Made by a program: the position numbers and the translations under genes. 64,000 bases of DNA, taken from positions 12,622 to 76,621 of the forward strand of contig MHCC01000001.1 in assembly GCA_001816475.1 (NCBI GenBank), written 5' to 3'. Below the pieces are notes generated by a model that was not told the DNA's origin, ran no database searches, and saw only the letters and a list, made by a program, of their open reading frames with translations. This document shows, in pieces, positions 3,705-22,410 of this stretch; positions within the stretch are counted from its first letter, which is position 1, and every line of letters starts with the position of its first letter. This DNA comes from Candidatus Blackburnbacteria bacterium RIFCSPLOWO2_01_FULL_40_20. Lineage in GTDB: Bacteria; Patescibacteriota; Microgenomatia; UBA8517; UBA10165.

Positions 3705-3735
3705 CCCGAGCTTGCGCCGGGTTTTTTCTGCGTGC
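3705..3735. terminator. bidirectional rho-independent terminator (A6-CCCGAGCTTGCGCCGGG-T6)
   Basis: GC stem flanked by an A-run on one side and a T-run on the other. It lies downstream of both the 16S rRNA (minus) and ORF 2872..3519 (plus). Confidence 0.45.
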
Positions 3736-3736
3736 C

Positions 3737-3775
3737 CCTAACGTACTCCGATCAGATCGGAGGAAGTGGGGACCT
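3737..3775. repeat. 39-bp hairpin repeat, copy 1 (GCCCCTAACGTACTCCGATCAGATCGGAGGAAGTGGGG)
   Basis: Identical 39-mer recurs at 27816..27854. Internal palindrome CTCCGATC-A-GATCGGAG is bracketed by CCCC...GGGG. Confidence 0.7.
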
Positions 3776-3950: not shown

Positions 3951-4737
3951 CATGTTCTTCCCCTATTACTAAGGGCATGGACTATATCTTCATCCGCAGA
4001 AAAATGACCTTTTCCGGATGACTGGATCCTATTGTTTTTGCAAAGTCCAAATAAGATTTTGCTCTAACAAAAAATCTCCAATAATTCGGGTCTGCTTTTT
4101 TGCTCGGATTATGCACCACTCCACAGCTTATACCCAACTTTTCTAAATAGTTTCTTACCTGAACTAGATCCTCAAATTTCTTTTGAGCAAAGTACAAGTA
4201 ATAACGAACAGTTGGACTTCTTGAAATACCACCCTCTGTGTCAAAGTAGCCTCTTGTGTAATCAACCTTATCTTGCCTTGTTTTAACTTGAATTCCTTTA
4301 AGAAGTTTCTTGGAAAATTCCACAATCCAAAGATTGCGGTTTTTCCCTTCTTTGTAAATCCAAGCTTTAGATCCAAGACTGAGAATACCTTTTGCAAGAT
4401 ATTCGCAATAAGATCGACTTTTAGAAGCCACTCGATAAGTGGTTTTTCTTTCTGTGGAATCATGCAACGCTCCAAGTAAGTAAGCTTTAGTCATCTTGCG
4501 GCGTCAACGTGTAGTCTCTACGGGGTCAAGCCCTTCGATCCGCCTTTTGGCGGACTCAGGACCGACTTCCCTCGGTATTTTCCCTTTTGTGTAATACCTC
4601 TACTAGGTTGAATTTTAGCTCAACCAACTCAAGTAAGCAAAGCTTGCTTTATGCTTCGCTTCACTACGCAAAAGTAGGAGTTCACCGATACAGTTGAATT
4701 TATCTACACCATTACTAGTGTAGGTCGCAACAGATTC
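3951..4737 (-). other. 16S intron 2 (group I-like), inserted between AAGUCGU and AACAAGGUA (E. coli ~1498/1499)
   Basis: The upstream exon ends in U (CATCAAGTCGT). The intron ends in G (..ACATG) directly before AACAAGGTATCCG. It contains a LAGLIDADG ORF. Confidence 0.6.
3982..4494 (-). CDS. LAGLIDADG homing endonuclease (intron-encoded)
   Basis: Motifs LLGALHDS and GYFDTEGG (LAGLIDADG-type dodecapeptides) in a 170-aa ORF lying wholly inside the 16S intron. Confidence 0.8.
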   Translation of the reverse strand: MTKAYLLGALHDSTERKTTYRVASKSRSYCEYLAKGILSLGSKAWIYKEGKNRNLWIVEFSKKLLKGIQVKTRQDKVDYTRGYFDTEGGISRSPTVRYYLYFAQKKFEDLVQVRNYLEKLGISCGVVHNPSKKADPNYWRFFVRAKSYLDFAKTIGSSHPEKVIFLRMKI

Positions 4738-4809
4738 ACGACTTGATGCTAGTTGCTGAACTTACCTTTGGGTCGCCGAGGGCGACACTTCAGGTACTTC
4801 CAACTCCTC

Positions 4810-5316
4810 TCATCTGACGGGCGGATTGCGATCCAATAAGGTTTTGGTCGCGTTCCCACCCGGCGAGCGGATTTCCCGCACCGGGCGAGACCCAAGATTC
4901 ATCCTAGACTTCAATTGTAGAACGAGCTTCAATCCCCTCTTGTTGTTGTGCCTTTTATCTCTAACCAAAAGTGCGATCTTGCGAAAAATTTTATAATTTT
5001 CAACTTTTACACTTTGGAGATGATGAGCGTCAAAAAAGGGTATTAAAACTTTACGTATGTCCTCCTGAGAGTTAATCTCGTATCGATAACATTGGCTGTG
5101 ATTTCGACGCTTTTCCTTTTGGTGGTATACTGCGCCACATCCAAAGAATTCCTCAACTTTCTTGAGCAAAGACAGTTCATCTTCCCTCATTTTTATATAA
5201 AAGTGAGTCATCACACCATGTTTTGAACGAGAATAACGTTTATCAGGAGGTCGGATGCCAACATAAAAACATCCTTCTCCATCCGTTAATCCTACAATGT
5301 AGTCTGGTGAAAGCAT
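4810..5316 (-). CDS. LAGLIDADG homing endonuclease (intron-encoded; reading frame runs 15 nt into the downstream exon)
   Basis: N-terminal IVGLTDGEGCFYV is a classic LAGLIDADG motif. The ORF's last five codons (NPPVR) are read from the 16S exon CCGCCCGTCAGATGA. Confidence 0.85.
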   Translation of the reverse strand: MLSPDYIVGLTDGEGCFYVGIRPPDKRYSRSKHGVMTHFYIKMREDELSLLKKVEEFFGCGAVYHQKEKRRNHSQCYRYEINSQEDIRKVLIPFFDAHHLQSVKVENYKIFRKIALLVRDKRHNNKRGLKLVLQLKSRMNLGSRPVREIRSPGGNATKTLLDRNPPVR

Positions 5317-5692
5317 AGGTAACTCCCTTTATCACCGCTGCGTCAATAATTCCAGTATATTTCACCGAAATAAAATAATCAACAGCAGTAACTAATATGG
5401 AGTAGCTGACTTCTCTTAAGGCCTTAACCTTCATCCTTAAGAGATCTCCCTAGGTCACTATCGCTTCTGTTCCAAGCATCCAAGTTATGCCACTTCCCCA
5501 AAACACACCGCTTGGGTCGATTTGGCACCCCGATATCGATCGGAGCTTGGCTGCTTTTTGCCTCAGGCCCTCCAGCTGGTATCTCACGATAACCCAGCCT
5601 GCCAATTCTTTTTGGCTACTCCTCCTCATGTTTAGAGGAGGGAGTGGATTTAAACCACTTAGGAACAATAGCTGCTAGGCGCGCTTTAATTT
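4825..5692 (-). other. 16S intron 1, inserted between TTGTACACA and CCGCCCGTCA (E. coli ~1398/1399)
   Basis: Universally conserved 16S sequence resumes exactly on either side of the insertion. Intron type not established: the boundaries do not show the canonical U / omega-G pattern in my reading. Confidence 0.55.
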
Positions 5693-6161
5693 TGTGTACA
5701 AAGAGCGAGAACGTATTCACCGCGGTATAGCTGACCCGCGATTACTACCAATTCCGCGTTCATGCAGGCGAATTTCAGCCTGCAATCCCCACTGAGACGC
5801 CTTTTGATGAGATTAGCTCCGCCTCGCGGCTTGGCAACTCATTGTAGGCGCCATTGTAGCATGTTTGTAGCCCCAGACATAAGGGCCATGCTGACTTGAC
5901 GTCGTCCCCTCCTTCCTGTCCGATAAAATCGGACCTGTCCCGTATGAATATTTAACATACAGCAGGGGTTGCGCTCGTTACCTCACTTAAGAGAACACCC
6001 CACGGCACGAGCTGACGACAGCCATGCAACACCTGTCCTAACGCTCCGGTTTGCACCGGAGGGCTCTGACTTTCATCGGAGTTTCATTAGGATGTCAAGC
6101 CTGGGTAAGGTTCTTCGGTTCGTGTCGAATTAAACAACATGCTCCACTGGTTGTGCGCTCT

Positions 6162-6210
<49 letters not shown>

Positions 6211-6254
6211 CTCGCTTAACGCGTTAGCTTGCGGAACAGATCTCGCAAAAAATA

Positions 6255-6440
6255 CAACGTATTTTTTGCTCAAAACCCAAAATACGAAATCCTAAATTCG
6301 AAACAATATCTAAATTCTAAATTCAAATAATTAAACGTTTTGAATTTTAGGATTTTTAGATTTTGAATTTGTTTCGTGCTTCGATATTCGTGCTTTGAAT
6401 TTCTCGCAAAGAATGTATTCTTTGCGAGACCTATCCCAAG
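6255..6440 (-). repeat. AT-rich ~185-nt expansion segment inside the 16S (E. coli ~840 region)
   Basis: Inserted between GTAAACTATG... and GCTAACGCGTTAAGC. Self-complementary halves (AAATCCTAAAATTCAAAACG ... CGAATTTAGGATTT) predict a long hairpin. Built from AAATTCAAAAT-like units similar to the intergenic GAAAATT iterons. Confidence 0.5.
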
Positions 6441-7560
6441 CGAGCATAGTTTACGGCTAGGACTACAGGGGTCTCTAATCCCTTTCGCTACCCTAGCTTT
6501 CGTCTCTCAGCGTCAGAATCTTTCTAGATGTTCGCCTTCGCCGTCGGTGTTCCTCGTAATATCAACGGATTTAACCCCTACACTACGAGTTCCAACATCC
6601 CCGAAAGATCTCAAAGTTCACCCGTATTCTCCGATATCCCAGAGTTAAGCTCTGGACTTTAACAGAAAACGTGGCGGACCGCCTACAGACTCTTTACGCC
6701 CAATAAATCCGGACAACGCTTGCACCCTCCGTATTACCGAGGCTTCTGGCACGGAGTTAGCAGGTGCTTATTCTACAACCTGTATGATTGTCAAAAGGAG
6801 TTTAAGACCCGAAGGCCTTCTTCCTCCACGCGGCGTCGCGGGATCAGACTTGCGTCCATTGTCCACGATTCCCAGTTGCTGCCACCCGTAGGTGTATGAG
6901 CCGTGTCTCAGTCTCATTCTGGGGGGCCGTGCTCTAACACCCCCTACCCGTTATAGCCTTGGTAGGCCGTTACCCCACCAACTAGCTGATAGGCCGCCGG
7001 CTCTTTCTTCGGTGGACCGTTAAGTCCTTTGCTCTTGCGAGATTATGCGGTATTACCCCCGCTTTCGCGGGGCTATCCCCCACCAAAGAGTAGATTCCGA
7101 CGTGTTACTCAGCCGTCTGCCGCTATCCCGACTTGCGTCGGAATCGCTCGACTTGCATGCTTAAAGCGCGCCGCTAGCGTTCGTCCTGGGCCAGGATCAA
7201 ACCCTCAAAAAAAATTGACATGATCAACTCCGATTTACATCGGAGCAACCATGGGTTCCCAGTTACATTTTGAATGTCAAAGAGCAAATTGCAACGCAAT
7301 TTACGATGCACCCACCGATAAATCTTGGCACGAGGCGTGTACGAATAGTACCCGCAAGCCGAGTGCGAAGATAAGGCGGGAAGGTACGCATGGTCTCTTT
7401 AAACCAAAAATCCACCACATGGCGGATTAAACAAGCTTTTTAGGCTTACTGGCTTACTCTTTTCCCATGTGTTTGAAAAGTATACTCGATTCCCTATCAA
7501 TAGTCAACCATCCGTTTAGTGTAAACACATATTTGCAAATACATATATAATAGTGTTGAA

Positions 7561-7953
7561 ATGGCCGAAAGAATAAAAGTTTTAACAGTAGAAAACGATA
7601 AAAGAATCGCAGAGGTAATAAAAGACATTTTAGCTTTTGAAGAAATCGAAACAGATCGTGTGACTTGGGTTAAAACAGCAGACGAAGCAATTGAGGCTTT
7701 AAAAAGCCCAGAAAAACCTTCAATAATCATATTAAATTTGGTTCTTGATAGTGGAATTGAAGAAAGTTGGCAATTTATAAGATATGTAAGGTCACCAACC
7801 TCCCCATTTCGCGATGTTCCAATACTGGTTATAACCGGCATGGACGCATCGGACGTAAAAATGACTTGCAAAACTTTGGGGGTAGAAGGATTTTTAGCCA
7901 AACCATTCGCCATTGAAGATCTCTTACAGAGTGTAAAAGAAGTATTAAAATGA
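7561..7953 (+). CDS. response regulator receiver-domain protein (CheY-like, no output domain)
   Basis: KVLTVENDKRI...D...ILNLVLDSG...ILVITGMDASD...K follows the receiver-domain D/D/T/K pattern. Overlaps the downstream kinase gene by 4 nt. Confidence 0.75.
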   Translation: MAERIKVLTVENDKRIAEVIKDILAFEEIETDRVTWVKTADEAIEALKSPEKPSIIILNLVLDSGIEESWQFIRYVRSPTSPFRDVPILVITGMDASDVKMTCKTLGVEGFLAKPFAIEDLLQSVKEVLK

Positions 7954-9137
7954 TGACTGAAGAAGAAACAGGTATCAAGACAATCCCAAAGTCTTCCACA
8001 GACTCCGCTGAACGTGAGTCCAAAGATCATTTGCGCGTGTTTGTTGCAGAAGCCGGAACCTCAGAAGTTGCGAACAGTGCATCGTTTGAGGTATTACGAA
8101 AAACCTTAGTTGCAATAAACGCGTGCGGTAGAATCTCAAGAGCATATCAAGAAAATCCTGTAAAAGACCAGTTTAGTTTATTATCGAGGACCGACGATAT
8201 TGAGACGGACTCGAGAGTATTAAGAAATATTTGTCAGCTGGCAGTTCCTTCCGACAGTACCGCTTCTGAGCTTTTGTTACAACAACAAGAAGAACGGTTT
8301 AACGAGATTGCACATCAAGAAGAGTTAAGATATGGGAGACATTTCCCTACTGAAACTGCAGCACTAATAATTCCTGACGAAAAAACTTTAAAAGAGCTAA
8401 CTCAAACACTTGCTGATTTAAGGCACGACTTGAAAAACGCAATGTGCACTCTTCTGCCAAGAGTACAAATGGCAAGACGCGGGATAAACATAGACATTGC
8501 ACTTGAAAACATAAATTACTCATTTAATAAGGTTGGAGAGCTTACAGAAAGCGCTACAAGCTTGATCGAAAAATCTTACCCAAAAGAAAAATTGTCAACT
8601 TCAGACGTCGCAGCAGCCCTTAAAGAGTGTCTGAAAAAAAATAATCCTGCAGAAAAATCTTTAAGTATTAGCGTTATCGAGTCAGAAGAATCTCAAGATT
8701 CAATAGTGATCTGGTCGCAAAGTTGGATATCGCGTCTTGCAGCAAACATTGCCCAAAACACATTAAAGGCTTACGATGCCCGTGACGAGCTATCCCCTGA
8801 AAAAGCAAAAGGCCCAAGAATTCTTTTGGCCAGTATGCGAACAACCAAAAGTGAAAACGGGGCAAGATGTTTGAGAATTGAAGTTGATAACAGAGCCATA
8901 AAAATGCCAGATGAAATAATAAAAAATGGATTCCAAAGAGGTCTCTCGTTTTGGCCAGGAAGTTCTTTGTCGGGAGAAGGAAGGGGTATGGCCTCAGACA
9001 GTAAAACTCTTCAAGAGCAATATGGAGGAACAATTAAGGCTGAAAATATTGCTAACCAAGCGGGTGAAATAATAGGGGCAAGAATTATCATTGAAGTGCC
9101 GATCGTCAAAGATGCACCTGTGGCCTACCCATATTAA
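7950..9137 (+). CDS. sensor histidine kinase (cytoplasmic; HisKA + HATPase_c)
   Basis: H-box LRHDLKNAMCTL. C-terminal G-box-like GRGMASDSKTL...GG. No transmembrane helices. Confidence 0.65.
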   Translation: MMTEEETGIKTIPKSSTDSAERESKDHLRVFVAEAGTSEVANSASFEVLRKTLVAINACGRISRAYQENPVKDQFSLLSRTDDIETDSRVLRNICQLAVPSDSTASELLLQQQEERFNEIAHQEELRYGRHFPTETAALIIPDEKTLKELTQTLADLRHDLKNAMCTLLPRVQMARRGINIDIALENINYSFNKVGELTESATSLIEKSYPKEKLSTSDVAAALKECLKKNNPAEKSLSISVIESEESQDSIVIWSQSWISRLAANIAQNTLKAYDARDELSPEKAKGPRILLASMRTTKSENGARCLRIEVDNRAIKMPDEIIKNGFQRGLSFWPGSSLSGEGRGMASDSKTLQEQYGGTIKAENIANQAGEIIGARIIIEVPIVKDAPVAYPY

Positions 9138-9147
9138 AATTAAGTCG

Positions 9148-9186
9148 AGAGAGGGGTCATGGAGGACGTGACCCCCCTCTCTTGTA
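9148..9186. terminator. bidirectional terminator hairpin AGAGAGGGGTCA..TGACCCCCCTCTCT
   Basis: 12-bp GC-rich stem between the convergent genes 7950..9137 (+) and 9192..9755 (-). Confidence 0.45.
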
Positions 9187-9191
9187 GATTA

Positions 9192-9755
9192 TTAGTCGAC
9201 GACTTGTTGGGCGGGATAGATCGTGTAGGTATACCGGATCAATCCGGTTTTACCATAAATAACGGCAATGTCGATTTTGCCGGTAAGTGCCCCACCATCC
9301 TTCCCGTTGTGATTCCCAGGATCCCGTAGGCTTACGACCTGGCTGTTGAGCAGCTGAGCCAACTCGCCAACTGAAAGGTTGCTCCCATTCGGATTTTGGG
9401 TTACACCAGTCCACTGGTATCGCGGGCGAAGCGTAAGAACAACGTCATTGCCACCGTTTACAGGTGCAACCGGACCAATGACTACAACAAGGCTTGCCCT
9501 ATCTTCCCCGGTCCCCTTTCCAACAAACGAGAACGTTTGGCCCGACGGGTCGGTGTATGATACGTCGCCTGTTGAGACAACGATCGAGTTCCCGTCTTCT
9601 GTCCAAAGGCCGTAAGGACTCGGGTCGGAACTCGCGTCAGGTGAACCAACCGACGAATAGTGGAATGTCGGAAATCCGCCTCCTGCCGAGGTCGTTGACG
9701 AGAAACCGACAAAAAGAGCCAGCACCATTGCAACGATCGAAACCAGAATCTTCAC
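9192..9755 (-). CDS. secreted hypothetical protein (signal peptide, Gly/Thr/Ser-rich), GC-rich gene
   Basis: N-terminus MKILVSIVAMVLALFVGFSSTTSA. GC content well above neighbours. Confidence 0.55.
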   Translation of the reverse strand: MKILVSIVAMVLALFVGFSSTTSAGGGFPTFHYSSVGSPDASSDPSPYGLWTEDGNSIVVSTGDVSYTDPSGQTFSFVGKGTGEDRASLVVVIGPVAPVNGGNDVVLTLRPRYQWTGVTQNPNGSNLSVGELAQLLNSQVVSLRDPGNHNGKDGGALTGKIDIAVIYGKTGLIRYTYTIYPAQQVVD

Positions 9756-10131
9756 CTGCCACTCCTTAATTTAATGTTCTGAAAGTACCAGAGCGTGTGT
9801 CCCGATGAATCGGGGCTTTACGTTCTAAGTCCTCCAACAGTACTTTCATCACTATTATACTATGAGGCAAGAACATTTGCAACAATTTTCTTGTAGTAAG
9901 TTTACTATCAACTTACTTTATACTTACTAACAAAGAGTACATTAAATGTATGACTGAAAAATCAAGAAAAGGGGGTTATGCAAAAAGACCTCTTTGGCAA
10001 TATATACTGATGTATCTGGTCATCGGTGGAATAATCTATGTTTTGATTTACTACTTTTTAATTCGAGGAAATTATTCGCCTTCTCTACTTTCTGCCCCTG
10101 CACCAGTCCAAAACGCTCCAGGACCAAGATA

Positions 10132-11034
10132 TTAGACTGCTTGAGTAGTAACTCCATTTTTATGAGGAACTTGATAGCAGTAACCACCTTTTTTCCCATA
10201 AATTCTCCCCAAGCCATATTTGGCTACTTTTTCTCTTAAAATTGGCAATTCATCGCGCACCGAGTTTGCCGCTCCATTTATCGTAATCTTTCCGTCGCCG
10301 ATTTCTTCCTTAAAAACAGCAAATGCCAAAGCAAGAACACTAATCACTCCACCGCCAATTGGCAAGTTTCCTAAAATTCTATTCTGAAAATCTGTTAAAG
10401 GATCTATTGGCATTTCCTTTTCCACTTTACGCGCCGTTTCAATAAGGAGTTGGGTTGGTTCGTTACCATTTTTATACAACACCACCGTCACATTGCTTTC
10501 TGGTCTTACCCAAGTCTCCCTTCTTTTTCGTTCTTCTTTGATTCTTAAAAGTTCGATCCCTCGCTCTAGACCCGGGTCTTTCCTTATCCTTTCAGCTTCT
10601 TCAAGATAAGCCTTCTCAAGTGAATCTAATGCAGTATCGCAATCGGGAGGAAGAATCCCCCGTTCAGCGTCCTCCCTCATTGCTTTAATTTTGCCACAAG
10701 ACTCCATGGTGTGGGCGTATTGTTCTGCGAGTCTTACAAGTCCTTCTGAAAATATACGATCCGTTTTTCTTATACCCGCCTTTACTAATACTTTGCTTGT
10801 ACATGAAGAACAAATTGTTTCTTCTGAGCGCTGGTTTGACTGAAGCGGCTTTAAAGGAAGAAGGCACTCAGGATCGTCATCACCCCAAAGACAGTATTTA
10901 ACTACTTGAATCTGCTCTGGAGAACGTCCATTCTCAGTCCCGTTCTTAAACTTGGACATAGACTGTTCTGAAGAACTATGAATCTCACAAGTTATTGTGG
11001 AAAACTGTCCAATCCTTTCGTGAGGTTGGTACAT
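10132..11034 (-). CDS. hypothetical protein with Cys-rich N-terminal region
   Basis: 300-aa ORF containing C...C..C...C and CGK motifs; no family recognised. Confidence 0.45.
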   Translation of the reverse strand: MYQPHERIGQFSTITCEIHSSSEQSMSKFKNGTENGRSPEQIQVVKYCLWGDDDPECLLPLKPLQSNQRSEETICSSCTSKVLVKAGIRKTDRIFSEGLVRLAEQYAHTMESCGKIKAMREDAERGILPPDCDTALDSLEKAYLEEAERIRKDPGLERGIELLRIKEERKRRETWVRPESNVTVVLYKNGNEPTQLLIETARKVEKEMPIDPLTDFQNRILGNLPIGGGVISVLALAFAVFKEEIGDGKITINGAANSVRDELPILREKVAKYGLGRIYGKKGGYCYQVPHKNGVTTQAV

Positions 11035-11077
11035 GCGCCATTAAAGCAGATTTGTGCCTGTTTGTCAATTTTTAGCC

Positions 11078-11428
11078 TCAATTTTTCTTGAAAAGTTTCC
11101 TTAAAATTACTTTGGCCAATGTCCAAAGGAGTGACTCACTCATAAGCGAAGCTTGGGGCTTCGTCTTAGACTTATGCTGACCCTCCCAAACTAACCTTGA
11201 CCAAACGGACAAAATGATCCACTCCTTTTTCTCATTTTGTTTTGCCACAACCTCAATTTTTTCACTTCCCAATGTTTTGTAATAAATCCAAGCTCCTTGA
11301 GCTGTAGCATATCGCGACTTGTCTGGACGGCGCCATGTTACCCATGCGTCTCCTTGTTTTATTCCCCGCTCGCGTAGTCTTTGTAAAGCATGATTTGTCC
11401 AAATAACACCTCCGTAATGTTGATCCAT
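11078..11428 (-). CDS. DUF4258-family protein (putative toxin component)
   Basis: HALQRLRERGI motif near the N-terminus, typical of DUF4258. Confidence 0.5.
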   Translation of the reverse strand: MDQHYGGVIWTNHALQRLRERGIKQGDAWVTWRRPDKSRYATAQGAWIYYKTLGSEKIEVVAKQNEKKEWIILSVWSRLVWEGQHKSKTKPQASLMSESLLWTLAKVILRKLFKKN

Positions 11429-11436
11429 ATTTATAT

Positions 11437-11700
11437 CTACTTTGCTAAACCATCAAATATAAGTTTTTTAACAAGCGTTTGATAAGGCATGTCCGCCTTG
11501 TGAGCTGTAATTTTCAATCTCTCAATAAGACTTTCTGGCAACCGGATTGTAATGGGCCGGCTTGTTAATTTAAGATTCGGAAAGCGGGCCACCCTGGCCG
11601 TAGAGTAGTCTATAAATTCGGTTGAATCATGTGATTGCCAAAATTTTCTTTCCTGACTTTCCGTTTTGAAATGTGGAATTTTTTTAAGTTTTTTGTTCAT
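11437..11700 (-). CDS. brnA: BrnA-like ribbon-helix-helix antitoxin
   Basis: C-terminal RPITIRLPESLIERLKITAHKADMPYQTLVKKLIFDGL (RHH/CopG-like). Overlaps the upstream BrnT-like gene. Confidence 0.6.
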   Translation of the reverse strand: MNKKLKKIPHFKTESQERKFWQSHDSTEFIDYSTARVARFPNLKLTSRPITIRLPESLIERLKITAHKADMPYQTLVKKLIFDGLAK

Positions 11701-12016
11701 ATTGATTCCTTTCTTTTTTGTTCGCTTTTCTTGCAGAAATTATCCTTATTTTATCTTTTCTTATCGTAAATACTACAAACAATACTTTGTTTTGAGTAGT
11801 TAAGCCAACTGCAATATACCTTTCTTCGAGTTGTGAATGTCTAACATCGTCCACCAGTAATAAGTTTTCATCTAAAAATATTTCTTCTGTTTCCTTTGGT
11901 GTAATGCCATGCTTTTTATAGCTTTTATCAAGATTACCTTTGTCCCAAATAAAACCAACGATCTTTGAGAGATCTAGCATTGTACATATGATACATGTAC
12001 AAATATTATTTGTCAA
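11684..12016 (-). CDS. brnT: BrnT-like toxin (DUF497)
   Basis: FIWDKGNLDKSYKKHGITPKETEEIF...DDVRHSQLEERYIAVG...RIISARKANKKERNQY matches the DUF497/BrnT pattern. The true start is probably an internal Met (MLDLSK...). Confidence 0.65.
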   Translation of the reverse strand: MTNNICTCIICTMLDLSKIVGFIWDKGNLDKSYKKHGITPKETEEIFLDENLLLVDDVRHSQLEERYIAVGLTTQNKVLFVVFTIRKDKIRIISARKANKKERNQYEQKT

Positions 12017-12237
12017 GATGGCTTTAGAGTTAAATCGTTGAACAAAAATTTCCCCCCTTGCAACTCCTATAGTTGTGTGGTATAAAGAAAAACCGCGTGC
12101 CCAGGCGGTGTCAAAAAATCATGAATAGTCAAGAACTATTAAATGTCATGTTACCCAAGAGATTGGGTTTTCGCCTCGTGGGCCAAAACTTAAGTTTTGC
12201 CGCGATCTTTGTGCACAAAGCACCTCTTCAGCTTTAG

Positions 12238-12507
12238 CGCACAAGCACCGCGACAAAACGCGGTGTAAGTTCCAAAGTTGATGCAATCACAGAACGCGAG
12301 ATTCAAACAAAGATGAAGTGGATTGCCAGCGGCAAGACAGTTGTCATTATCGCCCACCGACTCTCGACAATCAGGAGTGCTGACAACATTATTGTCATGG
12401 ACGAAGGGAGGAAAGTTGAGGAAGGAACTCACGCACAGTTGATGCAACAGCGGGGTTTGTACGCAAAAATGGTAGCGCTGCAAACTGCGGAAGTTGCAAT
12501 CAGCTAG
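12238..12507 (+). pseudogene. C-terminal fragment of an ABC exporter ATP-binding domain (MsbA-like), remnant
   Basis: In-frame translation reads ...SKVDAITEREIQTKMKWIASGKTVVIIAHRLSTIRSADNIIVMDEGRKVEEGTHAQLMQQRGLYAKMVALQ. This covers the D-loop and H-loop with the IAHRLSTI motif. There are no Walker A/B motifs or transmembrane region, an upstream in-frame stop, and much higher GC than surrounding DNA. Confidence 0.6.
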
Positions 12508-12569
12508 ATATCTGGCACCAGGCCGTCACGACGCTAAGTCGGACGTAAGTCCTGGTGCTTTTTCATTAG

Positions 12570-12833
12570 CTATTTGTATACGCCTTGCCTGTGGCCAATT
12601 TCCACAATTATTACTGCATGGCTAGTGTTTATGACTACATAAATGATGCTGTATGGCCAAGCCCGAAGTTTGTACTGACCCTCAAATTCTCCTCTTAATC
12701 TTTCACCCGCAAGAGGGTTCTTGGATAATTTTTCAACCGCTCTTGATATTTTTTCTTTGTCTGAAGGTTTGAGTTTTGAAAATGATTTCTCGGCTTGCTT
12801 GGTAAAAATAATCTTAGCCACTTTACATTCCAA
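12570..12833 (-). CDS. RelE/ParE-family toxin
   Basis: 87 aa with C-terminal ...LRAWPYSIIYVV...IVEIGHRQ pattern, preceded by an overlapping antitoxin gene. Confidence 0.65.
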   Translation of the reverse strand: MECKVAKIIFTKQAEKSFSKLKPSDKEKISRAVEKLSKNPLAGERLRGEFEGQYKLRAWPYSIIYVVINTSHAVIIVEIGHRQGVYK

Positions 12834-13146
12834 ATTTTTTCTTTACATCTTTCCACTCGACCAGTCGACCTGCCTTGATGTCTTCCATTCCCTTTTTAAT
12901 ACCACGAACAAGTTTGGTGTCCGACATCACGTCTAATGTCGCCTCTAAAGAGGCTAACTCTTCTTGAGAAACAAGTACGGCTTTAGTCTCTCCTTTTTTA
13001 GTTATGCCAACCCTTTCCCCTGTTTGGGAAACCTCATCGAGTAAGTCGTAGAGCTTAGTTCTAGCTTGTGTTGCAGAAATCGTAGTCATAACGGTATCGT
13101 ACGCTTTAGCGTACGTTTTGTCAATGCCCAATAGATCACTATTCAA
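12823..13146 (-). CDS. Phd/YefM-family antitoxin
   Basis: TTISATQARTKLYDLLDEV...GERVGITKKGETKAVLVS is the Phd/YefM N-terminal signature. Confidence 0.7.
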   Translation of the reverse strand: MNSDLLGIDKTYAKAYDTVMTTISATQARTKLYDLLDEVSQTGERVGITKKGETKAVLVSQEELASLEATLDVMSDTKLVRGIKKGMEDIKAGRLVEWKDVKKKFGM

Positions 13147-13933
13147 ACTCTAAAACCATAGGTAAATGATCTGAAACTTCAACAACCGGCACTTCAAAAC
13201 TAACAACATTTATGTCTTTTGAAACAAACGTATAATCTGCGAACGGTTGAAATTCTGGTGTGCCTTGATAAGGGTCTAGCGAACTTCTTGTAGTTTTGAT
13301 CTCATTCTTCTTAATAAGGTTTATGAAATCCTGTTCTATCATTTTTATACATTGTGTATAAGGCCTTAAATTAAAATCTCCACACAAAATTTTCGGCCCC
13401 GCGTGTTTCCTTGTAAACTCAAGAGTCTTTTCAGATTGTGCAATTCTATCGGAGTTGTCCAGTTTATCCCCAGGATGCCAAATGCCATGAATGTTGCAAA
13501 TCAAGAAATTTTTACCATCTTTGTTAAAACTAACATAGGAAACGTTTGAAGGATTGTCAGTAAAATCAGGTTTCATTGGAGCAAAACGGGATCGGAAGGT
13601 AAAGAAGTCTCCTTGGTTGTCGATTATTATACTTTTTTTAACAAAAATTCCGAGACCGTATTTTAAATCAAAACCGATATGTCCTGTTGGATCTACACCT
13701 CTGCAAGTTGGGTAATAAAAGCCGTGATAATCAATAAAAAGATTTGAAAGCTCCTGATAAAGATTTGCCCTTGCCCCACCGGTTTCAACTACATTATCTG
13801 CAGTGTCAAATATTTCCTGAAAACAAAAAATGTCAACATCCCCGTTGTATTTTTCCAAAAACTCCATCAAGGAACCGTACGCTCTCCCACCCCATAAATT
13901 TAAAGATAAAAGTTTCACAAAACATGTTATCAC
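13139..13933 (-). CDS. endonuclease/exonuclease/phosphatase (EEP) family protein
   Basis: LKLLSLNLWGG...FCFQE..., IHGIWH, GDFN and SDHLP motifs typical of the EEP fold. Confidence 0.7.
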   Translation of the reverse strand: MITCFVKLLSLNLWGGRAYGSLMEFLEKYNGDVDIFCFQEIFDTADNVVETGGARANLYQELSNLFIDYHGFYYPTCRGVDPTGHIGFDLKYGLGIFVKKSIIIDNQGDFFTFRSRFAPMKPDFTDNPSNVSYVSFNKDGKNFLICNIHGIWHPGDKLDNSDRIAQSEKTLEFTRKHAGPKILCGDFNLRPYTQCIKMIEQDFINLIKKNEIKTTRSSLDPYQGTPEFQPFADYTFVSKDINVVSFEVPVVEVSDHLPMVLEFE

Positions 13934-13990
13934 ACTTTTTTCTTACCAATTTATATCAGTTTTATCATTTCAAAAATTTAATGTAAAAGT

Positions 13991-14644
13991 ATGAATAGAG
14001 TTTTGATATTAGTAATAATTGCGCTTTTAATTGGAGCATTCTTTGGAGGAGAAGTTGTAAAACCCGTAAAGGAAATCTTCGTCCTAAAAGAACAAACTTT
14101 TACAACCCAAGAAATTGATTTCAAAAATACATCACGCAAGCTTTGGGAGGATCACATTGTTTGGACTCGAGAATTCATAACAAGTGCTGCTAACAACTCC
14201 TCTGATCTAAACAACGTCGCCCAAAGGCTTTTGAAAAACCAGGAGGACATTGGAAATTCAATCAAGCCATATTATGGAGAAGAAGCCGGAAACAAATTAA
14301 CAGATCTCTTAAAAACCCACACCCAAACAGCAGGAGACTTGGTAAAAACAACAAAAGCGGGAAGTAAAACGGCTGCAGATCAAGCAGAAAAAAAGTGGTA
14401 TGGGAATGCTGATGACATTGCCTCCTTCTTTGCAAATGCAAATCCTGAATTTAGAAAAGGAGATTTAGTAAAGATGTTGAATGAACATCTTGCGCTAGCT
14501 AAACAAGAAGCTGTTGATATTTTAGGTAAAAAACCAGCAGAAAGCATTGGAACTCATGACGCGATCCAGGATCAAATCTTGAAAATGTCCGACTCCCTAT
14601 CGAACGTAACAATCAACAAATTCCCCGATAAGTTTGGAAAGTAA
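13991..14644 (+). CDS. hypothetical membrane-anchored protein
   Basis: N-terminal transmembrane segment VLILVIIALLIGAFFGG; the rest is hydrophilic. Confidence 0.5.
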   Translation: MNRVLILVIIALLIGAFFGGEVVKPVKEIFVLKEQTFTTQEIDFKNTSRKLWEDHIVWTREFITSAANNSSDLNNVAQRLLKNQEDIGNSIKPYYGEEAGNKLTDLLKTHTQTAGDLVKTTKAGSKTAADQAEKKWYGNADDIASFFANANPEFRKGDLVKMLNEHLALAKQEAVDILGKKPAESIGTHDAIQDQILKMSDSLSNVTINKFPDKFGK

Positions 14645-14720
14645 AAATACGTTTGCCCAGGGACAAGGTTCGAAAAGCAAAATTACTTCTCTCACCCTGC
14701 CCCCAGGCGGTTGGATCCTA

Positions 14721-14921
14721 TTAGCCTTCCTTTATCACCGACGGCTTGTCGATGTTTTTGAAAAAGGCTACCAGGACAAACAAGCCAACCGGGCCAAAAA
14801 GTCCAGTCAACAGGAACCAGTTAAAACCGCTCCTTCCCTTGCCTTGTGCGATTCCTGCCGCGATCGTGGCAATAATGAACCAGCCTACGAACAGATCAGC
14901 GCCTAAGTAACCCACCTTCAC
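14721..14921 (-). CDS. small membrane protein (two TM segments)
   Basis: 66 aa, FIIATIAAGIA...WFLLTGLFGPVGLFVLVAFF. Confidence 0.35.
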   Translation of the reverse strand: MKVGYLGADLFVGWFIIATIAAGIAQGKGRSGFNWFLLTGLFGPVGLFVLVAFFKNIDKPSVIKEG

Positions 14922-15457
14922 TCCTTTAGTTATCTAAATCTGCCAACTTCACTGTCAAAAGACAAGTTCCCAGACTGGGCAAATGATAGATCAAAGAGAC
15001 AGAAAAGTCAAACTACAGGACGTTATGTTATATTTATCATAAGGAACAACGCAACAATTTAAAGTCGATATCTTGTATGGAGGACAGGAGCTTGGCGTTA
15101 AACCAGAAAACGTCCTTGATTGGAACGAACAGCATCTGCAACGGGAAGGCGCAGAACAAGTTCCTGTAAAGGGTGTTTTGTTTACTGCTTCCCAAACAAC
15201 CGTTGACCAACAAAAAAACCAGACAAGATCATGTTCACATACGTTGACAAGTATGGACAAGCAAGAGAAAGCGAGGAGGCAATGAAAAAACTTTTAAGGT
15301 TTTATGAACTATTGGATTATTGTTATCAAGGGATGTTTGGTTCTGCTTTGGCTGAAACAAACCCCACCACTCACATCATGCCAATTCTTCAAGGAAGAAA
15401 ATAATTTAGAATAACGGAACAAATCAAGAAGTTGAACAAAGTTGGTGTTGCAGTTGT

Positions 15458-15528
15458 TGCGGAGCTAGGATTCGAACCTAGAGTCGCACGGATTCAAAGT
15501 CCGGCGTGTTGCCATTACACCACTCCGC
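15458..15528 (-). tRNA. tRNA-Gln(TTG)
   Basis: Minus-sense GCGGAGTGGTGTAATGGCAACACGCCGGACTTTGAATCCG...CTAGGTTCGAATCCTAGCTCCGCA. Anticodon loop CTTTGAA. Confidence 0.8.
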
Positions 15529-15533
15529 AAAAA

Positions 15534-16253
15534 TCAAACATTGCCTGTGCGTTTGGGAAATTGGCAATATTTCATACATATTATACCCGATAAGGCTAGT
15601 ATTTTTCTAGTCAGGCTTGGTATTCCTCGCACAATTACCTGTAACTGCCCCACATAGTTGGAATTAGTCCTTCTTTTAGAGACAACATTCTTTTTCCAAG
15701 TTAAATCAATGTATCCCACAGGTACAGATAGTTTCATTGCCCAGAAATTCTTAATCCTGCCAAGATCTTCTTTTCTGCTTTCGTGAACAAACAACCTATA
15801 TTTGACCTCTTCTGTCCTACTAAGAAAAAAGTACTTTTCTAAAAAGTTCAAAAATAACTGAACCAAGCGATAGTCAGAGTTGGAAAACCTGCACTCATTC
15901 TTTTTTGTACCCTCTGCTTGGTAAAGCATAAGGCCTGCCACAAAAAATGGATCATTTATAAACGTCTTGTATCTCTGAATAAAACTTTCAAGTTCTTCAT
16001 CAAACTTCTTTGCTCTAGTAAATTTTGCCGCTTCGGTCGCAGCTCTAATTTTTTCTACTCTTTTCTTGAGTTGAATTTCTAAATGTTCTTTTGTAAGCGT
16101 TAAGCCTGCAAATGTCAACCAGTTTTGGAGTGTAGATTTGGCAACTGGAACAATTTTTCTAATTTCTCCGTAACTTAACCCTTCTTTTCTCAATCTAACA
16201 CATTCAACGAATTTCCCTTTGTTTTTCTTTCTTATCGAACTTTTATTAATCAT
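15534..16253 (-). CDS. HTH-domain protein with a LAGLIDADG-like motif (possible free-standing homing-endonuclease-like gene)
   Basis: N-terminal HTH-like LSYGEIRKIVPVAKSTLQNWL. Central DPFFVAGLMLYQAEGTK resembles a LAGLIDADG dodecapeptide. Sits directly upstream of tRNA-Gln. Confidence 0.45.
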   Translation of the reverse strand: MINKSSIRKKNKGKFVECVRLRKEGLSYGEIRKIVPVAKSTLQNWLTFAGLTLTKEHLEIQLKKRVEKIRAATEAAKFTRAKKFDEELESFIQRYKTFINDPFFVAGLMLYQAEGTKKNECRFSNSDYRLVQLFLNFLEKYFFLSRTEEVKYRLFVHESRKEDLGRIKNFWAMKLSVPVGYIDLTWKKNVVSKRRTNSNYVGQLQVIVRGIPSLTRKILALSGIICMKYCQFPKRTGNV

Positions 16254-16373
16254 ACTTTATGTATGAACTATTGGTTCGAAAATGTCAAATACAAGATCTT
16301 GTTGAATATTTGGAATGCCTTGGTAGATTTTGGGCATAAATTAGGCTATAATTAGTTACCTATACACAATTAG

Positions 16374-16444
16374 GGCCCGTAGCTCAACGGCAGAGCATCT
16401 CCCTTTTAAGGAGTTGGTTGACAGTTCGAATCTGTCCGGGCTCA
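16374..16444 (+). tRNA. tRNA-Lys(TTT)
   Basis: GGGCCCGTAGCTCAACGGCAGAGCATCTCCCTTTTAAGGAG..GACAGTTCGAATCTGTCCGGGCTCA. Anticodon loop CTTTTAA. Confidence 0.85.
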
Positions 16445-16482
16445 CCCAATGATATTTGTGTTTTTAGAGACTTTTAGCTTCA

Positions 16483-16583
16483 AGAAATTGTGGAAAACTC
16501 TGGGATTGTCTTGATACCTGTTTCTTCTTCAGTCATCATTTTAATACTTCTTTTACACTCTGTAAGAGATCTTCAATGGCGAA
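16483..16583. repeat. inverted duplicate (~100 bp, 2-3 mismatches) of 7898..8003, the junction of the response-regulator 3' end and histidine-kinase 5' end
   Basis: The reverse complement of 7911-7990 (ctttgggattgtcttgatacctgtttcttcttcagtcatcattttaatacttcttttacactctgtaagagatcttcaatg) occurs at 16499-16578 with a single visible mismatch. Identity fades at both ends. Confidence 0.8.
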
Positions 16584-16688
16584 TATTATTTACTTCATGC
16601 TTTTATAAAGAAAAGTCAGAAAACACCTGCCAAAGAATTAAAGGTAGCCCTTGACAGAATGAGAAAATTAGTATAGCATATATGCTAT

Positions 16689-16982
16689 ATGATTAAACCT
16701 AAAGACAGACAACATTTAGATTTTGAAGTGTGGGAAAAGGAAGCTTTAAAAGATCCTAAACTAAGAGCGGAGTATGACAAACTACAGCCACAGTTTGCTA
16801 TTCTAAGAGCAAGGATTGAAAAAAGATTAACCCAAAAAGAGTTGGCTCAAAGGATTGGGACCAAACAATCAGTTATCTCGAGACTTGAATCCGGCCGTGC
16901 TAATCCATCAGTTGCTTTTCTTAAGAAACTAGCTCAAGCCTTAAACTCTCATCTGGAAATTAGATTTACCAATTTTAAGTAA
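16689..16982 (+). CDS. XRE-family helix-turn-helix transcriptional regulator
   Basis: LTQKELAQRIGTKQSVISRLESGRANPSVAFLKKLAQAL is an XRE/Cro-type HTH. Confidence 0.7.
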   Translation: MIKPKDRQHLDFEVWEKEALKDPKLRAEYDKLQPQFAILRARIEKRLTQKELAQRIGTKQSVISRLESGRANPSVAFLKKLAQALNSHLEIRFTNFK

Positions 16983-17175
16983 TCTTGCTGTACTTTATTG
17001 TGCATTTTTTAGACCAAATGTATAGGCAAACTCAGAGTTTAGACCGTCAGCCCCGATTAAATCGGGGTCAGACAGGAATAATTCAAAGAATTCCCGCAGC
17101 TCGCCTCGCTGAAGCTCCGACGAAGCGGGTCTGTTTAAGGTACTAGGGGCTCACAGAAGCACAAGGTGTGCCAAA

Positions 17176-17649
17176 TTAGAAGTTTATTATTTCCGGCATT
17201 TGGAGTCTTACGCTTTCTCCTCTTTTCTGCTCAAATTGGACCACCTGTGCTTGAGTAAGATTGCCATTGTCGTAAAAATACCTTATTTCAAAGCCGTCCA
17301 TACTTTTAAACGTTTTCTTTTCGTAGACTAAGTAGCCTTCTGGTAAGTATTCATATCGATGAATATCTGATCCTTCTACCGCCATCAGCAATCTCCCGCT
17401 CTTATCATATTCGTAAACATATCGTTTGCCGCCTTTCATAAAATCCAAACGTAAGTTTGAACCAGATGAATATATCTCTACTTCTTCTGTCCCCCAAAAG
17501 ATTGCAGGTCTTGTTAAAAGATTTTCTGCTGGAATGGGTTTTGCCAACCTTTCCTTTTGGTGAGCCTTCCAACTATCAACAGTGTCAAATGGGATGAAAA
17601 AACTAACAATATCTCTTCTTTGAGGAACCTCAGCAGTTAAAGTTGCCAT
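17176..17649 (-). CDS. hypothetical protein
   Basis: 157-aa ORF followed (on the minus strand) by a GCACACCTTGTGC hairpin. Confidence 0.45.
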   Translation of the reverse strand: MATLTAEVPQRRDIVSFFIPFDTVDSWKAHQKERLAKPIPAENLLTRPAIFWGTEEVEIYSSGSNLRLDFMKGGKRYVYEYDKSGRLLMAVEGSDIHRYEYLPEGYLVYEKKTFKSMDGFEIRYFYDNGNLTQAQVVQFEQKRGESVRLQMPEIINF

Positions 17650-17990
17650 ATTTATGGGCTATAGTATGATTGAAAACTTAATGGAGACAGTTGTCAAGAG
17701 GATTTCTTATTGCAAAAAATACTCCTCGCTTTAAAATTGCATTCATGCGAGTTGAGAGAATGGAGGGTGAAGGCAATGTTCTTTATAGAATTGTCGGGAT
17801 AAAAGATGATATGGGCCGTGGCGTTTCTATGACTTTGATACAACAATAAGATAAAGACATTATTGTCTCCTTGCAGGAGCAAATAACAGGAAAAATGCTA
17901 AGTGCTAAATTTTGTAGTTCACAAGGCGGAAGCTTAAACCCCAAGATTGCAAAAGCACTTCGAGCAGCAATCAAGGTACTTGTAGATGAG

Positions 17991-18064
17991 TGACGCCTGC
18001 GGGAATCGAACCCGCGATTCCTGGGATGAAAACCCAGTGTCCTAGGCCGCTAGACGAAGGCGCC
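17991..18064 (-). tRNA. tRNA-Glu(TTC)
   Basis: Minus-sense GGCGCCTTCGTCTAGCGGCCTAGGACACTGGGTTTTCATCCCAGGAATCGCGGGTTCGATTCCCGCAGGCGTCA. Anticodon loop TTTTCAT. Confidence 0.85.
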
Positions 18065-18147: not shown

Positions 18148-18702
18148 ATGGGCATGATCAAACTTGGCTCAAAAGAACTTCGAAAAAACAAACCTGAAGA
18201 GCATCAATTAAAAGAAATTAAAAGGAATCCAATTTATATTGTATTGGATCGGGTTTGGGATACTTATAACATTGGCTCTTTATTTCGTTTGGCTGACGCG
18301 GTTGCAGTTGAAAAAGTATATCTTTGCGGCGATATGGAATACCCTCCTTCTTCCCGAATCCACAAAGCTGCAGTGGGGACTGAAGAATGGGTTCCTTGGG
18401 AAAAAAGAGACACAACAATTGAAGTAATTGATGAATTGAAGAAGAAGGGTGTTCAAATAGTTGCAATTGAACAAGATAGTAGATCAACTCTCCTAAAAGA
18501 ACTTGTACCAAGCTTCCCAGTTGCACTAATTGTTGGACATGAATCTGACGGTGTATCAAAAGAAGTATTGGATAAAGCAGACATTATTGTTGAGTTGCCG
18601 ATGTTTGGAGTAAACAAATCGTTTAACGTTTGGGGCTCGGGCGCTGTCGTTGCCTACAAAGTCCTAGAATACACACAAAAATGTCATCCTGAACGCAAGT
18701 GA
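18148..18702 (+). CDS. SpoU/TrmH-family RNA 2'-O-methyltransferase
   Basis: NIGSLFRLADAVAVEKVYLCG, GHESDGVS and ELPMFGVNKSFNVWGSGAVVAY match the three SPOUT motifs. Confidence 0.75.
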   Translation: MGMIKLGSKELRKNKPEEHQLKEIKRNPIYIVLDRVWDTYNIGSLFRLADAVAVEKVYLCGDMEYPPSSRIHKAAVGTEEWVPWEKRDTTIEVIDELKKKGVQIVAIEQDSRSTLLKELVPSFPVALIVGHESDGVSKEVLDKADIIVELPMFGVNKSFNVWGSGAVVAYKVLEYTQKCHPERK

Positions 18703-22385: not shown

Positions 22386-22387
22386 TT

Positions 22388-22410
22388 CCGATCCTATCGG
22401 AATTGAAAAT
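22388..22410. promoter_or_regulatory. palindrome GATTCCGATCCTATCGGAATTG flanked by GAAAATT heptamer repeats (copy 1 of 4)
   Basis: 7-bp arms TTCCGAT/ATCGGAA with 3-nt spacer; the same element occurs at 23186, 27410 and 30269. Confidence 0.4.

Follow-up and report, generated by a model that had tools for sequence, protein, structure and literature searches.

An inverted copy of a receiver/kinase gene junction beside tRNA-Lys in Candidatus Blackburnbacteria is most likely a rearrangement scar

In a 64,000-nucleotide stretch of the genome of Candidatus Blackburnbacteria bacterium RIFCSPLOWO2_01_FULL_40_20 (hereafter, the window), the junction between a response-regulator gene and a histidine-kinase gene occurs twice. 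The second copy lies about 8.5 kb away on the contig, upside-down relative to the first and next to tRNA-Lys. We asked how such a pair arose and whether the second copy does anything.

The repeat search, MAFFT alignment, and self-BLAST delimited two arms of 96 nt each, arm A at 7905-8000 (plus strand) and arm B at 16489-16584 (reverse complement). They are 98% identical, with two mismatches (7989 A/G and 7993 C/T), and self-BLAST of the window gave an E value of 7e-41. The match is exact over 84 nt (7905-7988), and the homology breaks off abruptly at both arm ends. A sequence-only reading of this DNA had proposed a 100-bp inverted duplication with 2-3 mismatches between 7898-8003 and 16483-16583, to be checked by self-alignment, with the second copy about 40 bp downstream of tRNA-Lys. 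The self-alignment shows this to be essentially right, with coordinates a few bases too generous; arm B begins 42 nt past tRNA-Lys(UUU). The longest exact inverted repeat expected by chance was 15-24 nt in 30 order-1 Markov simulations, against 84 nt observed, and the arm pair is the strongest repeat of any kind that the repeat search and self-BLAST found within the window. The repeat is real and far above chance. The arm sequence has two copies only in the window and in the collections searched; no further copy was found in the window, IMG/VR, or other organisms, and the arm core matched none of the IMG/VR contigs.

Arm A is the original, still-working gene junction. It comprises the final 16 codons of the receiver gene (FAIEDLLQSVKEVLK and the stop codon), the ATGA in which that stop overlaps the kinase start codon, and 17 codons from the 5' end of the kinase gene (MMTEEETGIKTIPKSST). 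The upstream gene (7561-7953, plus strand) encodes a stand-alone receiver-domain response regulator of 130 aa, with a Pfam Response_reg match (E 3.7e-12) and NCBIfam receiver matches; the promoter scan placed a promoter-like site for it at 7522-7551. Since the Response_reg match reaches residue 125 of 130, arm A encodes a genuine receiver C-terminal helix. The downstream gene (7950-9137, plus strand) encodes a divergent cytoplasmic histidine-kinase-like protein of 395 aa. Its HATPase_c match (E 3.6e-5) falls just below the gathering score and its C-terminal ChvG match is weak; by eye, the translation has an H-box-like RHDLKN motif and N/G-box-like motifs. Outside this population, no homologues of the receiver were found in a word-seeded search, and none were found for the kinase.

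Arm B is non-coding, lies outside any ORF, and has unrelated flanks. On its minus strand, a stop codon precedes the receiver fragment, the kinase fragment is a mere 19-codon ORF (MMTEEETGIKTIPEFSTIS followed by a stop codon), and both mismatches would be non-synonymous (K14E and S15F). The 42-nt spacer between tRNA-Lys and arm B (16447-16488, plus strand) is T-rich and has no terminator-like hairpin. The rest of the 1.5-kb block that separates tRNA-Lys from tRNA-Glu (16585-17989) contains an XRE/HTH_3 regulator gene (16689-16982, plus strand) with its own promoter (TTGACA-17-TAGCAT, 16651-16679) and operator downstream of arm B, the palindrome TATAGCATATATGCTATA (16672-16689), p157 (17176-17649, minus strand), and an unassigned 340 nt. 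No terminal repeat was found around this 1.5-kb insert.

Within one Candidatus Blackburnbacteria population, about 21 independent contigs from metagenomes and MAGs share this structure; neither the orientation of the arms nor the two mismatches ever differ. The count rests on 38 arm occurrences in 30 fetched loci, which reduce to about 21 distinct contigs drawn from assemblies of JGI, ENA, Logan-type, and NCBI origin. Because the arms keep the same flanks and mismatches in these contigs, duplication of the copy at 16.5 kb during assembly, which the sequence-only reading had named as a refuting case, is excluded. Apart from the general risk attached to metagenome-assembled genomes, nothing speaks for an assembly or scaffolding artefact, and an artefact would have to repeat one structure and two mismatches across samples, years, assemblers, and centres; we give it virtually no chance. 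The strain variants are 100% identical from 6112 to 16625. Differences begin just outside arm B, and the block between tRNA-Lys and tRNA-Glu is polymorphic among strains from 16625 on, with the XRE promoter and operator kept in a second allele. Since all strains are clonal over both arms, the conservation of the arms is no argument for or against function.

The comparison with relatives placed arm B at a breakpoint. In the three closest relatives (L072, L059, and L032), the order is tRNA-Lys(-)-tRNA-Glu(-)-SpoU(+), with the two tRNA genes side by side immediately before SpoU and 13-20 nt between them. In the window, tRNA-Lys(UUU) (16373-16446) is on the plus strand, with a TATAAT box at 16348-16353, and 1543 nt separate it from tRNA-Glu(UUC) (17990-18064, minus strand), which has kept its ancestral position and orientation beside SpoU (18148-18702, plus strand). 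The L072 SpoU is 83% identical to that of the window, its tRNA-Glu is nearly identical by eye, and its partial tRNA-Lys is identical in the D-arm and acceptor. Since tRNA-Lys is flipped and 1.5 kb from tRNA-Glu, arm B lies at a rearrangement junction specific to this lineage. Among more distant Microgenomates, the tRNA cluster differs in order and orientation, so this polarity depends on the three relatives. The left part of the cluster, tRNA-Gln(UUG) (15456-15529, minus strand) and p239 (15534-16253, minus strand), has the same orientation relative to SpoU as in L059 and L032; therefore, the 8.5 kb as a whole is not simply an inverted block. The synteny comparison that the sequence-only reading had suggested thus puts arm B exactly where the lineage split the tRNA-Lys/tRNA-Glu pair, and the broken junction fits its idea of an insertion or duplication footprint.

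The DNA between the arms invites another explanation, namely that the 8.5 kb arrived with a mobile or integrated element bounded by the arms, whether a genomic island at tRNA-Lys, a composite transposon, or something MITE-like. The interior adjoins tRNA genes, is rich in toxin-antitoxin genes, contains a gene remnant, and is missing from the syntenic loci of relatives. It carries a signal-peptide protein, BrnT/BrnA, ParE/Phd, an EEP nuclease, and the tRNAs. A C-terminal remnant of a type-B ABC exporter ATPase (12246-12507, plus strand) matches the end of the ABCB1 nucleotide-binding domain (E 2e-31); as a second gene fragment, it is further evidence of a history of rearrangement and deletion. 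This agrees with most of the content read earlier from the sequence (secreted protein, EEP nuclease, tRNAs, and ABC remnant); however, only two of the three reported toxin-antitoxin modules are complete pairs, the third being a lone DUF4258 gene, and no search supports a LAGLIDADG-like label for p239.

The accessory character of the segment also holds in part. From 7561 to 14921 the DNA is lineage-specific, and none of its genes occurs at the syntenic loci of the relatives, which are distant; the right approximately 1 kb between the arms (tRNA-Gln, p239, and tRNA-Lys) is instead a core cluster conserved beside SpoU across Microgenomates. A variable island bracketed by the arms, as first proposed, does not match this layout, in which arm A lies inside the accessory receiver-kinase operon, the right approximately 1 kb is core, and the segment is invariant among strains. 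The likeness to tRNA-linked genomic islands is accessory, toxin-antitoxin-rich DNA beside tRNA genes. Here, however, the repeats are inverted and come from a protein-gene junction rather than being direct repeats of a tRNA 3' end, no integrase is present, and the tRNAs belong to a conserved cluster. Over the two arms, the DNA between them, and about 10 kb on either side, no gene has a Pfam domain of an integrase, a recombinase, or a transposase. Additionally, the search for att-type direct repeats found no partial copy of tRNA-Lys, tRNA-Gln, or tRNA-Glu longer than 12 nt in the window, and no target-site duplication was found, the outer flanks GCCAAACC and ATTATTTA being unrelated. The arms are pieces of resident genes, not transposon ends, they have no further copy, the right end is the core tRNA cluster, and no presence/absence polymorphism of the 8.5-kb segment was seen within the population. 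The mobile-element explanation is largely refuted, and we regard it as very improbable.

Arm B is most likely a harmless rearrangement scar and neither a switch nor the boundary of a mobile island. More specifically, it is probably a non-functional ectopic inverted copy of the receiver-kinase junction, a repair or replication patch left by a complex local rearrangement in the ancestor of the population. In that rearrangement, tRNA-Lys would have been turned around and separated from tRNA-Glu by an insertion of about 1.5 kb comprising arm B, the XRE gene, and p157. Arm B would then be the scar of a gene fragment, comparable to the ABC-exporter remnant at 12.2-12.5 kb. Two routes are equally compatible with the data. 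A single template-switching or break-repair event may have used the opposite strand, 8.5 kb away, as the template for the 96 nt placed at the junction. Alternatively, a staggered-break inversion may have duplicated the junction, and later homologous recombination between the arms would have flipped the segment back.

Staggered breaks are known to leave inverted duplications of unique coding sequence at rearrangement breakpoints (Ranz et al. 2007, PMC1885836). As in those cases, a short stretch of unique coding sequence has an inverted second copy, synteny is broken at one of the two copies, and repetitive elements play no part. In contrast, the locus described here belongs to a bacterium (CPR) and has one duplicated stretch only, and the interval between the arms shows no inversion when compared with relatives, tRNA-Gln and p239 being unchanged and only tRNA-Lys flipped. 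Because this DNA is not inverted, and because un-inverting it would split the receiver-kinase operon, a staggered break needs a second flip, or else a pure templated insertion has to be assumed. Replication template switching and break-induced rearrangement (FoSTeS/MMBIR-type and quasi-palindrome events) can yield templated inverted insertions. In line with such events, tRNA-Lys and the adjacent 96-nt copy are both inverted relative to their source, the template is just 8.5 kb off, and the mismatches in the patch sit close together near one of its ends; here, however, the event is read from comparison with fairly distant relatives. Since the receiver and kinase have no outside homologues, no relative exceeds 83% identity in SpoU, and no empty-site or pre-rearrangement genome was found, we infer the repair mechanism, as well as the neutrality of arm B, rather than observe them.

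A rare RecA-type inversion between the arms could still take place; it would keep the receiver gene intact and part the kinase from its promoter and translational coupling. If it happened at low frequency, the flipping 8.5 kb would toggle the kinase between a coupled state and an uncoupled one, divergent from the XRE gene. Each arm holds a receiver end and a kinase start, so inversion is predicted to keep both reading frames, and the 84 nt of exact identity exceed the minimal length usually needed for RecA recombination. The inversion and re-inversion route considered above needs one such reaction. Against this, the arm flanks were A/A in 13 and B/B in 25 of the 38 occurrences, with mismatches following flank type and not one recombinant junction, a count that refers to consensus assemblies, in which a low-frequency inverted subpopulation would not show. 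The JGI collection has one contig with an arm, so its pattern scan says nothing on orientation. An exact-protein look-up of the kinase would also catch an inverted variant, the protein being unchanged; the receiver was directly upstream of the kinase in all ten places listed, and the other nine of the 19 contigs were grouped with these because their neighbours agreed. The parental neighbours were also present in every XRE and p239 contig, and contig ends did not fall at the arms. Many contigs are named k141, which we take to mean MEGAHIT assemblies with k=141 that would span a 96-nt repeat unambiguously. The earlier suggestion that the repeat is a substrate for inversion thus found no contig in its favour, whether by inverted orientation or by recombinant junction, and in the contigs examined the population is fixed in the coupled receiver-kinase orientation. 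Known invertible switches (fimS, hin, Bacteroides invertons, and shufflons) likewise have inverted repeats around a segment whose flip alters the expression context of a gene; here, however, the arms are 96 nt of coding sequence rather than short recombinase sites, the segment is 8.5 kb, no site-specific recombinase lies nearby, and a single orientation was found. We consider a switch of this kind quite unlikely.

A function for arm B in its present place was also weighed. Arm B begins 42 nt downstream of tRNA-Lys on the same strand, and a plus-strand transcript would be antisense to the receiver-kinase junction. Read-through from tRNA-Lys could therefore give a trans-acting antisense 3' trailer that would pair over 84-96 nt with the receiver stop codon and with the ribosome-binding site and start codon of the kinase; judged from the sequence, we hold this to be unlikely. 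Such an RNA might prevent the kinase from being made by translational coupling, or it might cause the operon mRNA to be cleaved. The TATAAT box lies 20 nt upstream of tRNA-Lys, no terminator-like site occurs on the plus strand from 16447 to 16688 or after arm B, the sense-strand position behind the tRNA gene is one that expression of an antisense RNA would require, and the exact 84 nt cover the ATGA overlap, with both mismatches at the far end. Regulatory tRNA 3' external transcribed spacers do exist, for example, 3'ETS-leuZ in E. coli. Like these tRNA trailers and other trans-encoded antisense RNAs, arm B is same-strand sequence 3' of a tRNA with complementarity to another transcript; however, the complementarity here is near-perfect over 96 nt instead of a short seed. 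A T-rich run directly follows tRNA-Lys, and the candidate RNA has no defined 3' end, no Rfam family match, and no structure on either strand beyond that of shuffled controls (z -0.5 and -1.1). A neutral scar would look identical. That the junction copy has been kept, either as a tRNA-Lys trailer antisense tying kinase synthesis to tRNA-Lys transcription or as arms allowing reversible uncoupling by RecA, is an unlikely proposition.

If either device were true, a reduced CPR genome would have made a regulatory device by micro-duplication. Arm B would carry more weight if it proved to be transcribed, as a clear example of an antisense regulator that arose when its own target site was duplicated. 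As a scar, arm B matters little in itself; it records a complex local rearrangement in a CPR genome, with a flipped tRNA gene, a templated inverted patch, and an inserted XRE cassette. The locus also cautions that inverted repeats around accessory genes need not flag mobile elements, and, within Microgenomates, it identifies the tRNA-Gln/Lys/Glu cluster upstream of SpoU as a hotspot of rearrangement.

A repeat search of the window found two arms of 96 nt, at 7905-8000 on the plus strand (arm A) and at 16489-16584 (arm B, the inverted copy near tRNA-Lys), which are 98% complementary and lie 8488 nt apart. The pair was the strongest repeat, direct or inverted, in the 64-kb window according to both the repeat search and self-BLAST (E 7e-41). 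Thirty order-1 Markov simulations of the window produced exact inverted repeats of at most 15-24 nt, compared with 84 nt observed. The MAFFT alignment of both arm regions showed that identity begins and ends abruptly, and the only two mismatches (7989 A/G and 7993 C/T) are close to the inner end; therefore, the first 84 nt are exact. The inverted duplication of the receiver/kinase gene junction claimed in the sequence-only reading was thus borne out, also by its presence in approximately 21 contigs, and the repeat is real and reproducible, an operon junction micro-duplicated in inverted orientation over 96 bp.

Arm A comprises the last 16 codons of the receiver gene (7561-7953, 130 aa), the ATGA stop/start overlap, and the first 17 codons of the kinase-like gene (7950-9137, 395 aa). 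The receiver protein matched Pfam Response_reg (E 3.7e-12) up to residue 125. The HATPase_c match of the kinase (E 3.6e-5) was slightly under the gathering score, and an H-box-like RHDLKN is visible in its translation. Arm B starts 42 nt past tRNA-Lys(UUU) (16373-16446). On its minus strand, a stop codon precedes the receiver fragment, the kinase fragment stops after 19 codons, and each of the two mismatches would change an amino acid. Arm A is the original and arm B a non-coding fragment. The receiver/kinase pair (7561-9137) is an ORFan: a word-seeded search of 5.8 billion proteins returned the same population only, with no homologues outside it. One source assigns the kinase to Candidatus Blackburnbacteria.

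For the comparison among assemblies, contigs with the kinase, the XRE protein encoded right of arm B (16689-16982, plus strand) or p239 (gene at 15534-16253, minus strand) were retrieved by exact-protein look-ups from JGI, ENA, and NCBI assemblies, including GCA_001816375.1, GCA_000993655.1, and several Rifle aquifer samples. Each retrieved contig had an identity of 99.4% or more with the window. Across 30 loci, which represent about 21 distinct contigs, we sorted the occurrences of the 84-nt core by their 20-nt flanks. The recombinant junctions would read GAAGGATTTTTAGCCAAACC+arm+ATTTCTTGAAGCTAAAAGTC and AAAAGCATGAAGTAAATAAT+arm+GACTCCGCTGAACGTGAGTC. Thirteen occurrences had both A flanks, 25 had both B flanks, and none were mixed; the two mismatches accompanied the B flanks in every case. 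The receiver gene was directly upstream of the kinase in 10 of the 10 places listed among 19 kinase contigs, the other nine being collapsed as same-neighbour by the look-up. The kinase protein would be unchanged in an inverted variant, so the exact-protein look-up would still retrieve it. A RecA-type flip-flop switch between the arms, possible in principle given the 84-nt identity, is quite improbable, as the flank-classified contigs contained no recombinant junction and the orientation is fixed. A scan of the JGI metagenome_contigs for the A-left flank, arm, and B-right flank pattern gave no matches, a negative that is uninformative because the control scan found just one contig there (L061) with the arm core.

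Contig ends fall elsewhere than at the arms. Many contigs carry k141_ names, which we take to denote MEGAHIT assemblies at k=141, and a 141-nt word bridges the entire 96-nt repeat. An assembly artefact is refuted, as the same structure occurs in about 21 independent contigs; their agreement also excludes an assembly duplication as the source of the 16.5-kb copy. A 2015 MAG contig (L014, LBWO01000017.1) lacks four stretches of about 100 nt present in all other assemblies (14204-14305, 15142-15267, 17246-17345, and 18546-18659); gaps in the assembly of this record are the probable reason.

Two strain variants (L006 and L007) match the window exactly from 6112 to 16625, both arms included, and diverge sharply from it starting at 16625, through the XRE gene. 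In L007, homology ends after 17050, and p157 (gene at 17176-17649, minus strand) is replaced by other ORFs, while L061 harbors a 56-nt deletion inside the XRE gene. SNPs and indels start 41 nt past arm B. As the divergence starts at 16625, the variable DNA is outside arm B and not between the arms. Although the population is otherwise clonal, at least three alleles exist for the XRE gene together with the DNA upstream of it (16625-17050); an AGGAGG leader is present in that of L006, whereas that of the window looks leaderless. The XRE/HTH_3 promoter is TTGACA-17-TAGCAT (16651-16679), and a perfect palindrome, TATAGCATATATGCTATA (16672-16689, in the 16651-16691 region), lies downstream of the TTGACA -35 box, overlaps the TAGCAT -10 box, and abuts the ATG; it is probably an autoregulatory operator.

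The divergent 16S rRNA gene (5643-7212, minus strand) and the receiver-gene promoter region are located left of arm A. Between the arms are the kinase body, a signal-peptide protein, a 300-aa orphan, a DUF4258 gene, the BrnT/BrnA and ParE/Phd toxin-antitoxin pairs, an EEP nuclease, and two orphans, followed by tRNA-Gln(-), p239(-), and tRNA-Lys(+). This segment also holds ~75 codons from the end of a type-B ABC exporter gene (12246-12507; E 2e-31 to the ABCB1 nucleotide-binding domain end), an isolated C-terminal ATPase remnant with an in-frame stop upstream, which sits between two toxin-antitoxin modules. The region made up of both arms, the DNA between them, and about 10 kb of flanking DNA on each side encodes no domain of a recombinase, integrase, or transposase. 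No partial tRNA copies indicated att sites, and no terminal repeats flank the 1.5-kb insert right of tRNA-Lys. That the arms mark an island or transposon boundary is highly improbable and largely refuted, since att repeats, a target-site duplication, mobility genes, and further copies are all missing. A phage or mobile origin was rejected for arm B, p157, and p239, none of which had a match in IMG/VR. A template/variable repeat of the DGR or retron type was also discarded, as there is no reverse transcriptase and the differences are A/G and C/T.

Arm B shares its strand with tRNA-Lys, and no terminator-like site precedes the XRE promoter. Read-through from the tRNA would yield an RNA antisense to the region in which kinase translation starts. 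This antisense RNA is unlikely, as a T-rich run directly follows tRNA-Lys and there is no Rfam match or structure signal. An RNA element was rejected: Rfam gave no match at E<=1, and the z-scores for folding were -0.5 and -1.1.

The SpoU gene (18148-18702, plus strand) served as the synteny anchor for relatives, in place of the receiver and kinase genes. Among the species-representative genomes recovered by SpoU, all relatives were at most 73% identical and none had the receiver or kinase gene; the window's species was not returned, and these representatives are still informative on tRNA-cluster synteny. The tRNA-Gln, tRNA-Lys, and tRNA-Glu cluster is conserved just upstream of SpoU in relatives (compared in L031, L032, L023, L042, L040, L050, L026, L059, L072, and L073; 15456-18702 in the window), with order and orientation differing between Microgenomates genomes. 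L072, L059, and L032 have the order Lys(-)-Glu(-)-SpoU(+), with tRNAs 13-20 nt apart, and in L059 and L032, Gln(-) and p239(-) come before Lys/Glu on the same strand. L072 has a SpoU of 83% identity, a tRNA-Glu that looks by eye almost the same as that of the window, and a partial tRNA-Lys with identical D-arm and acceptor; L059 has a SpoU of 74% identity and shares the downstream SpoU-DsbA-TrxR-Trx-ATPase synteny. The window order is Gln(-), p239(-), Lys(+), a 42-nt spacer, arm B, XRE(+), p157(-), Glu(-), SpoU(+). Therefore, in this lineage, tRNA-Lys was flipped and an insertion of 1543 nt separated it from Glu. Arm B is next to the flipped tRNA-Lys, at the breakpoint, and Gln and p239, inside the bracketed 8.5 kb, are unflipped.

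The genes from the receiver to p66 (a 66-aa orphan, 14721-14921) were found in none of the relatives' loci; therefore, that DNA is lineage-specific. The right-hand ~1 kb of the bracketed segment is core, judging from this synteny. The proposal of a variable island bracketed by inversion substrates is thus only partly supported: the lineage-specific genes agree with it, and the core portion, the invariance of 6112-16625, and the absence of mixed junctions do not.

Some relatives have a p239 homologue (34-53% identity) between Gln and Lys/Glu and others have none, and this patchy presence of a 230-240 aa family between tRNAs is as expected of a mobile insertion. The protein has an HTH-like N-terminal region and an invariant G-x2-LY-x-AEG-x-K, and it was placed in no family. 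The idea that it is a LAGLIDADG endonuclease, which could have made double-strand breaks, was rejected: the resemblance is a by-eye motif only (VAGLMLYQAEGTK), Pfam, NCBIfam, and PDB gave no support, and neither did a comparison by profile with the two LAGLIDADG proteins of the window. The single-sequence AlphaFold model (pLDDT 50) was too poor for a structure search.

Elsewhere in the window, Rfam scans found no 23S gene after the 16S rRNA gene; downstream of the 16S are instead LAGLIDADG ORFs (3982-4494 and 4810-5316, within 3959-5640) and a sub-threshold group I intron match (3959-4093, 29.8 bits). A 19-nt exact direct copy of tRNA-Ile positions 8-26 (2461-2479) lies 47 nt upstream of tRNA-Ile (2526-2598). 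A family of short intergenic hairpin repeats with a CCGAT-N3/4-ATCGG core, often flanked by TTGAAAATT, occurs at 3727-3771, 9790-9831, 22347-22419, 23169-23241, 27386-27447, 27808-27852, 28555-28596, and 30257-30305; these could be REP-like elements or terminators. Tandem repeats at 38061-38172 and 41873-42288, of the 18-nt CACCAACATCATCTCCTA and 9-nt GCTCCAGCT types, suggest low-complexity repeat proteins.

As for the origin of the arms, we considered the staggered-break inversion model (PMC1885836). A simple inversion of exactly the bracketed 8.5 kb is unlikely because un-inverting it splits the operon, with the ATGA-coupled receiver gene and the kinase start on one side and the kinase body on the other; it also puts Gln and p239 in a non-ancestral orientation. 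In one more complex route, the operon junction would have been copied from 8.5 kb away as a templated inverted patch, by template switching or break repair, and placed in the same break that flipped tRNA-Lys. In the other, a staggered-break inversion would have created the two arms, and homologous recombination between them would then have turned the segment back. The two routes are inseparable from sequence alone, and we infer both the repair route and the neutrality of its product. A rearrangement scar without a dedicated function is the probable outcome, and a duplication-born antisense regulator or switch has little likelihood. The arms are best read as a scar that a complex local rearrangement, an event of a known kind, left at a tRNA cluster in a population of Candidatus Blackburnbacteria.
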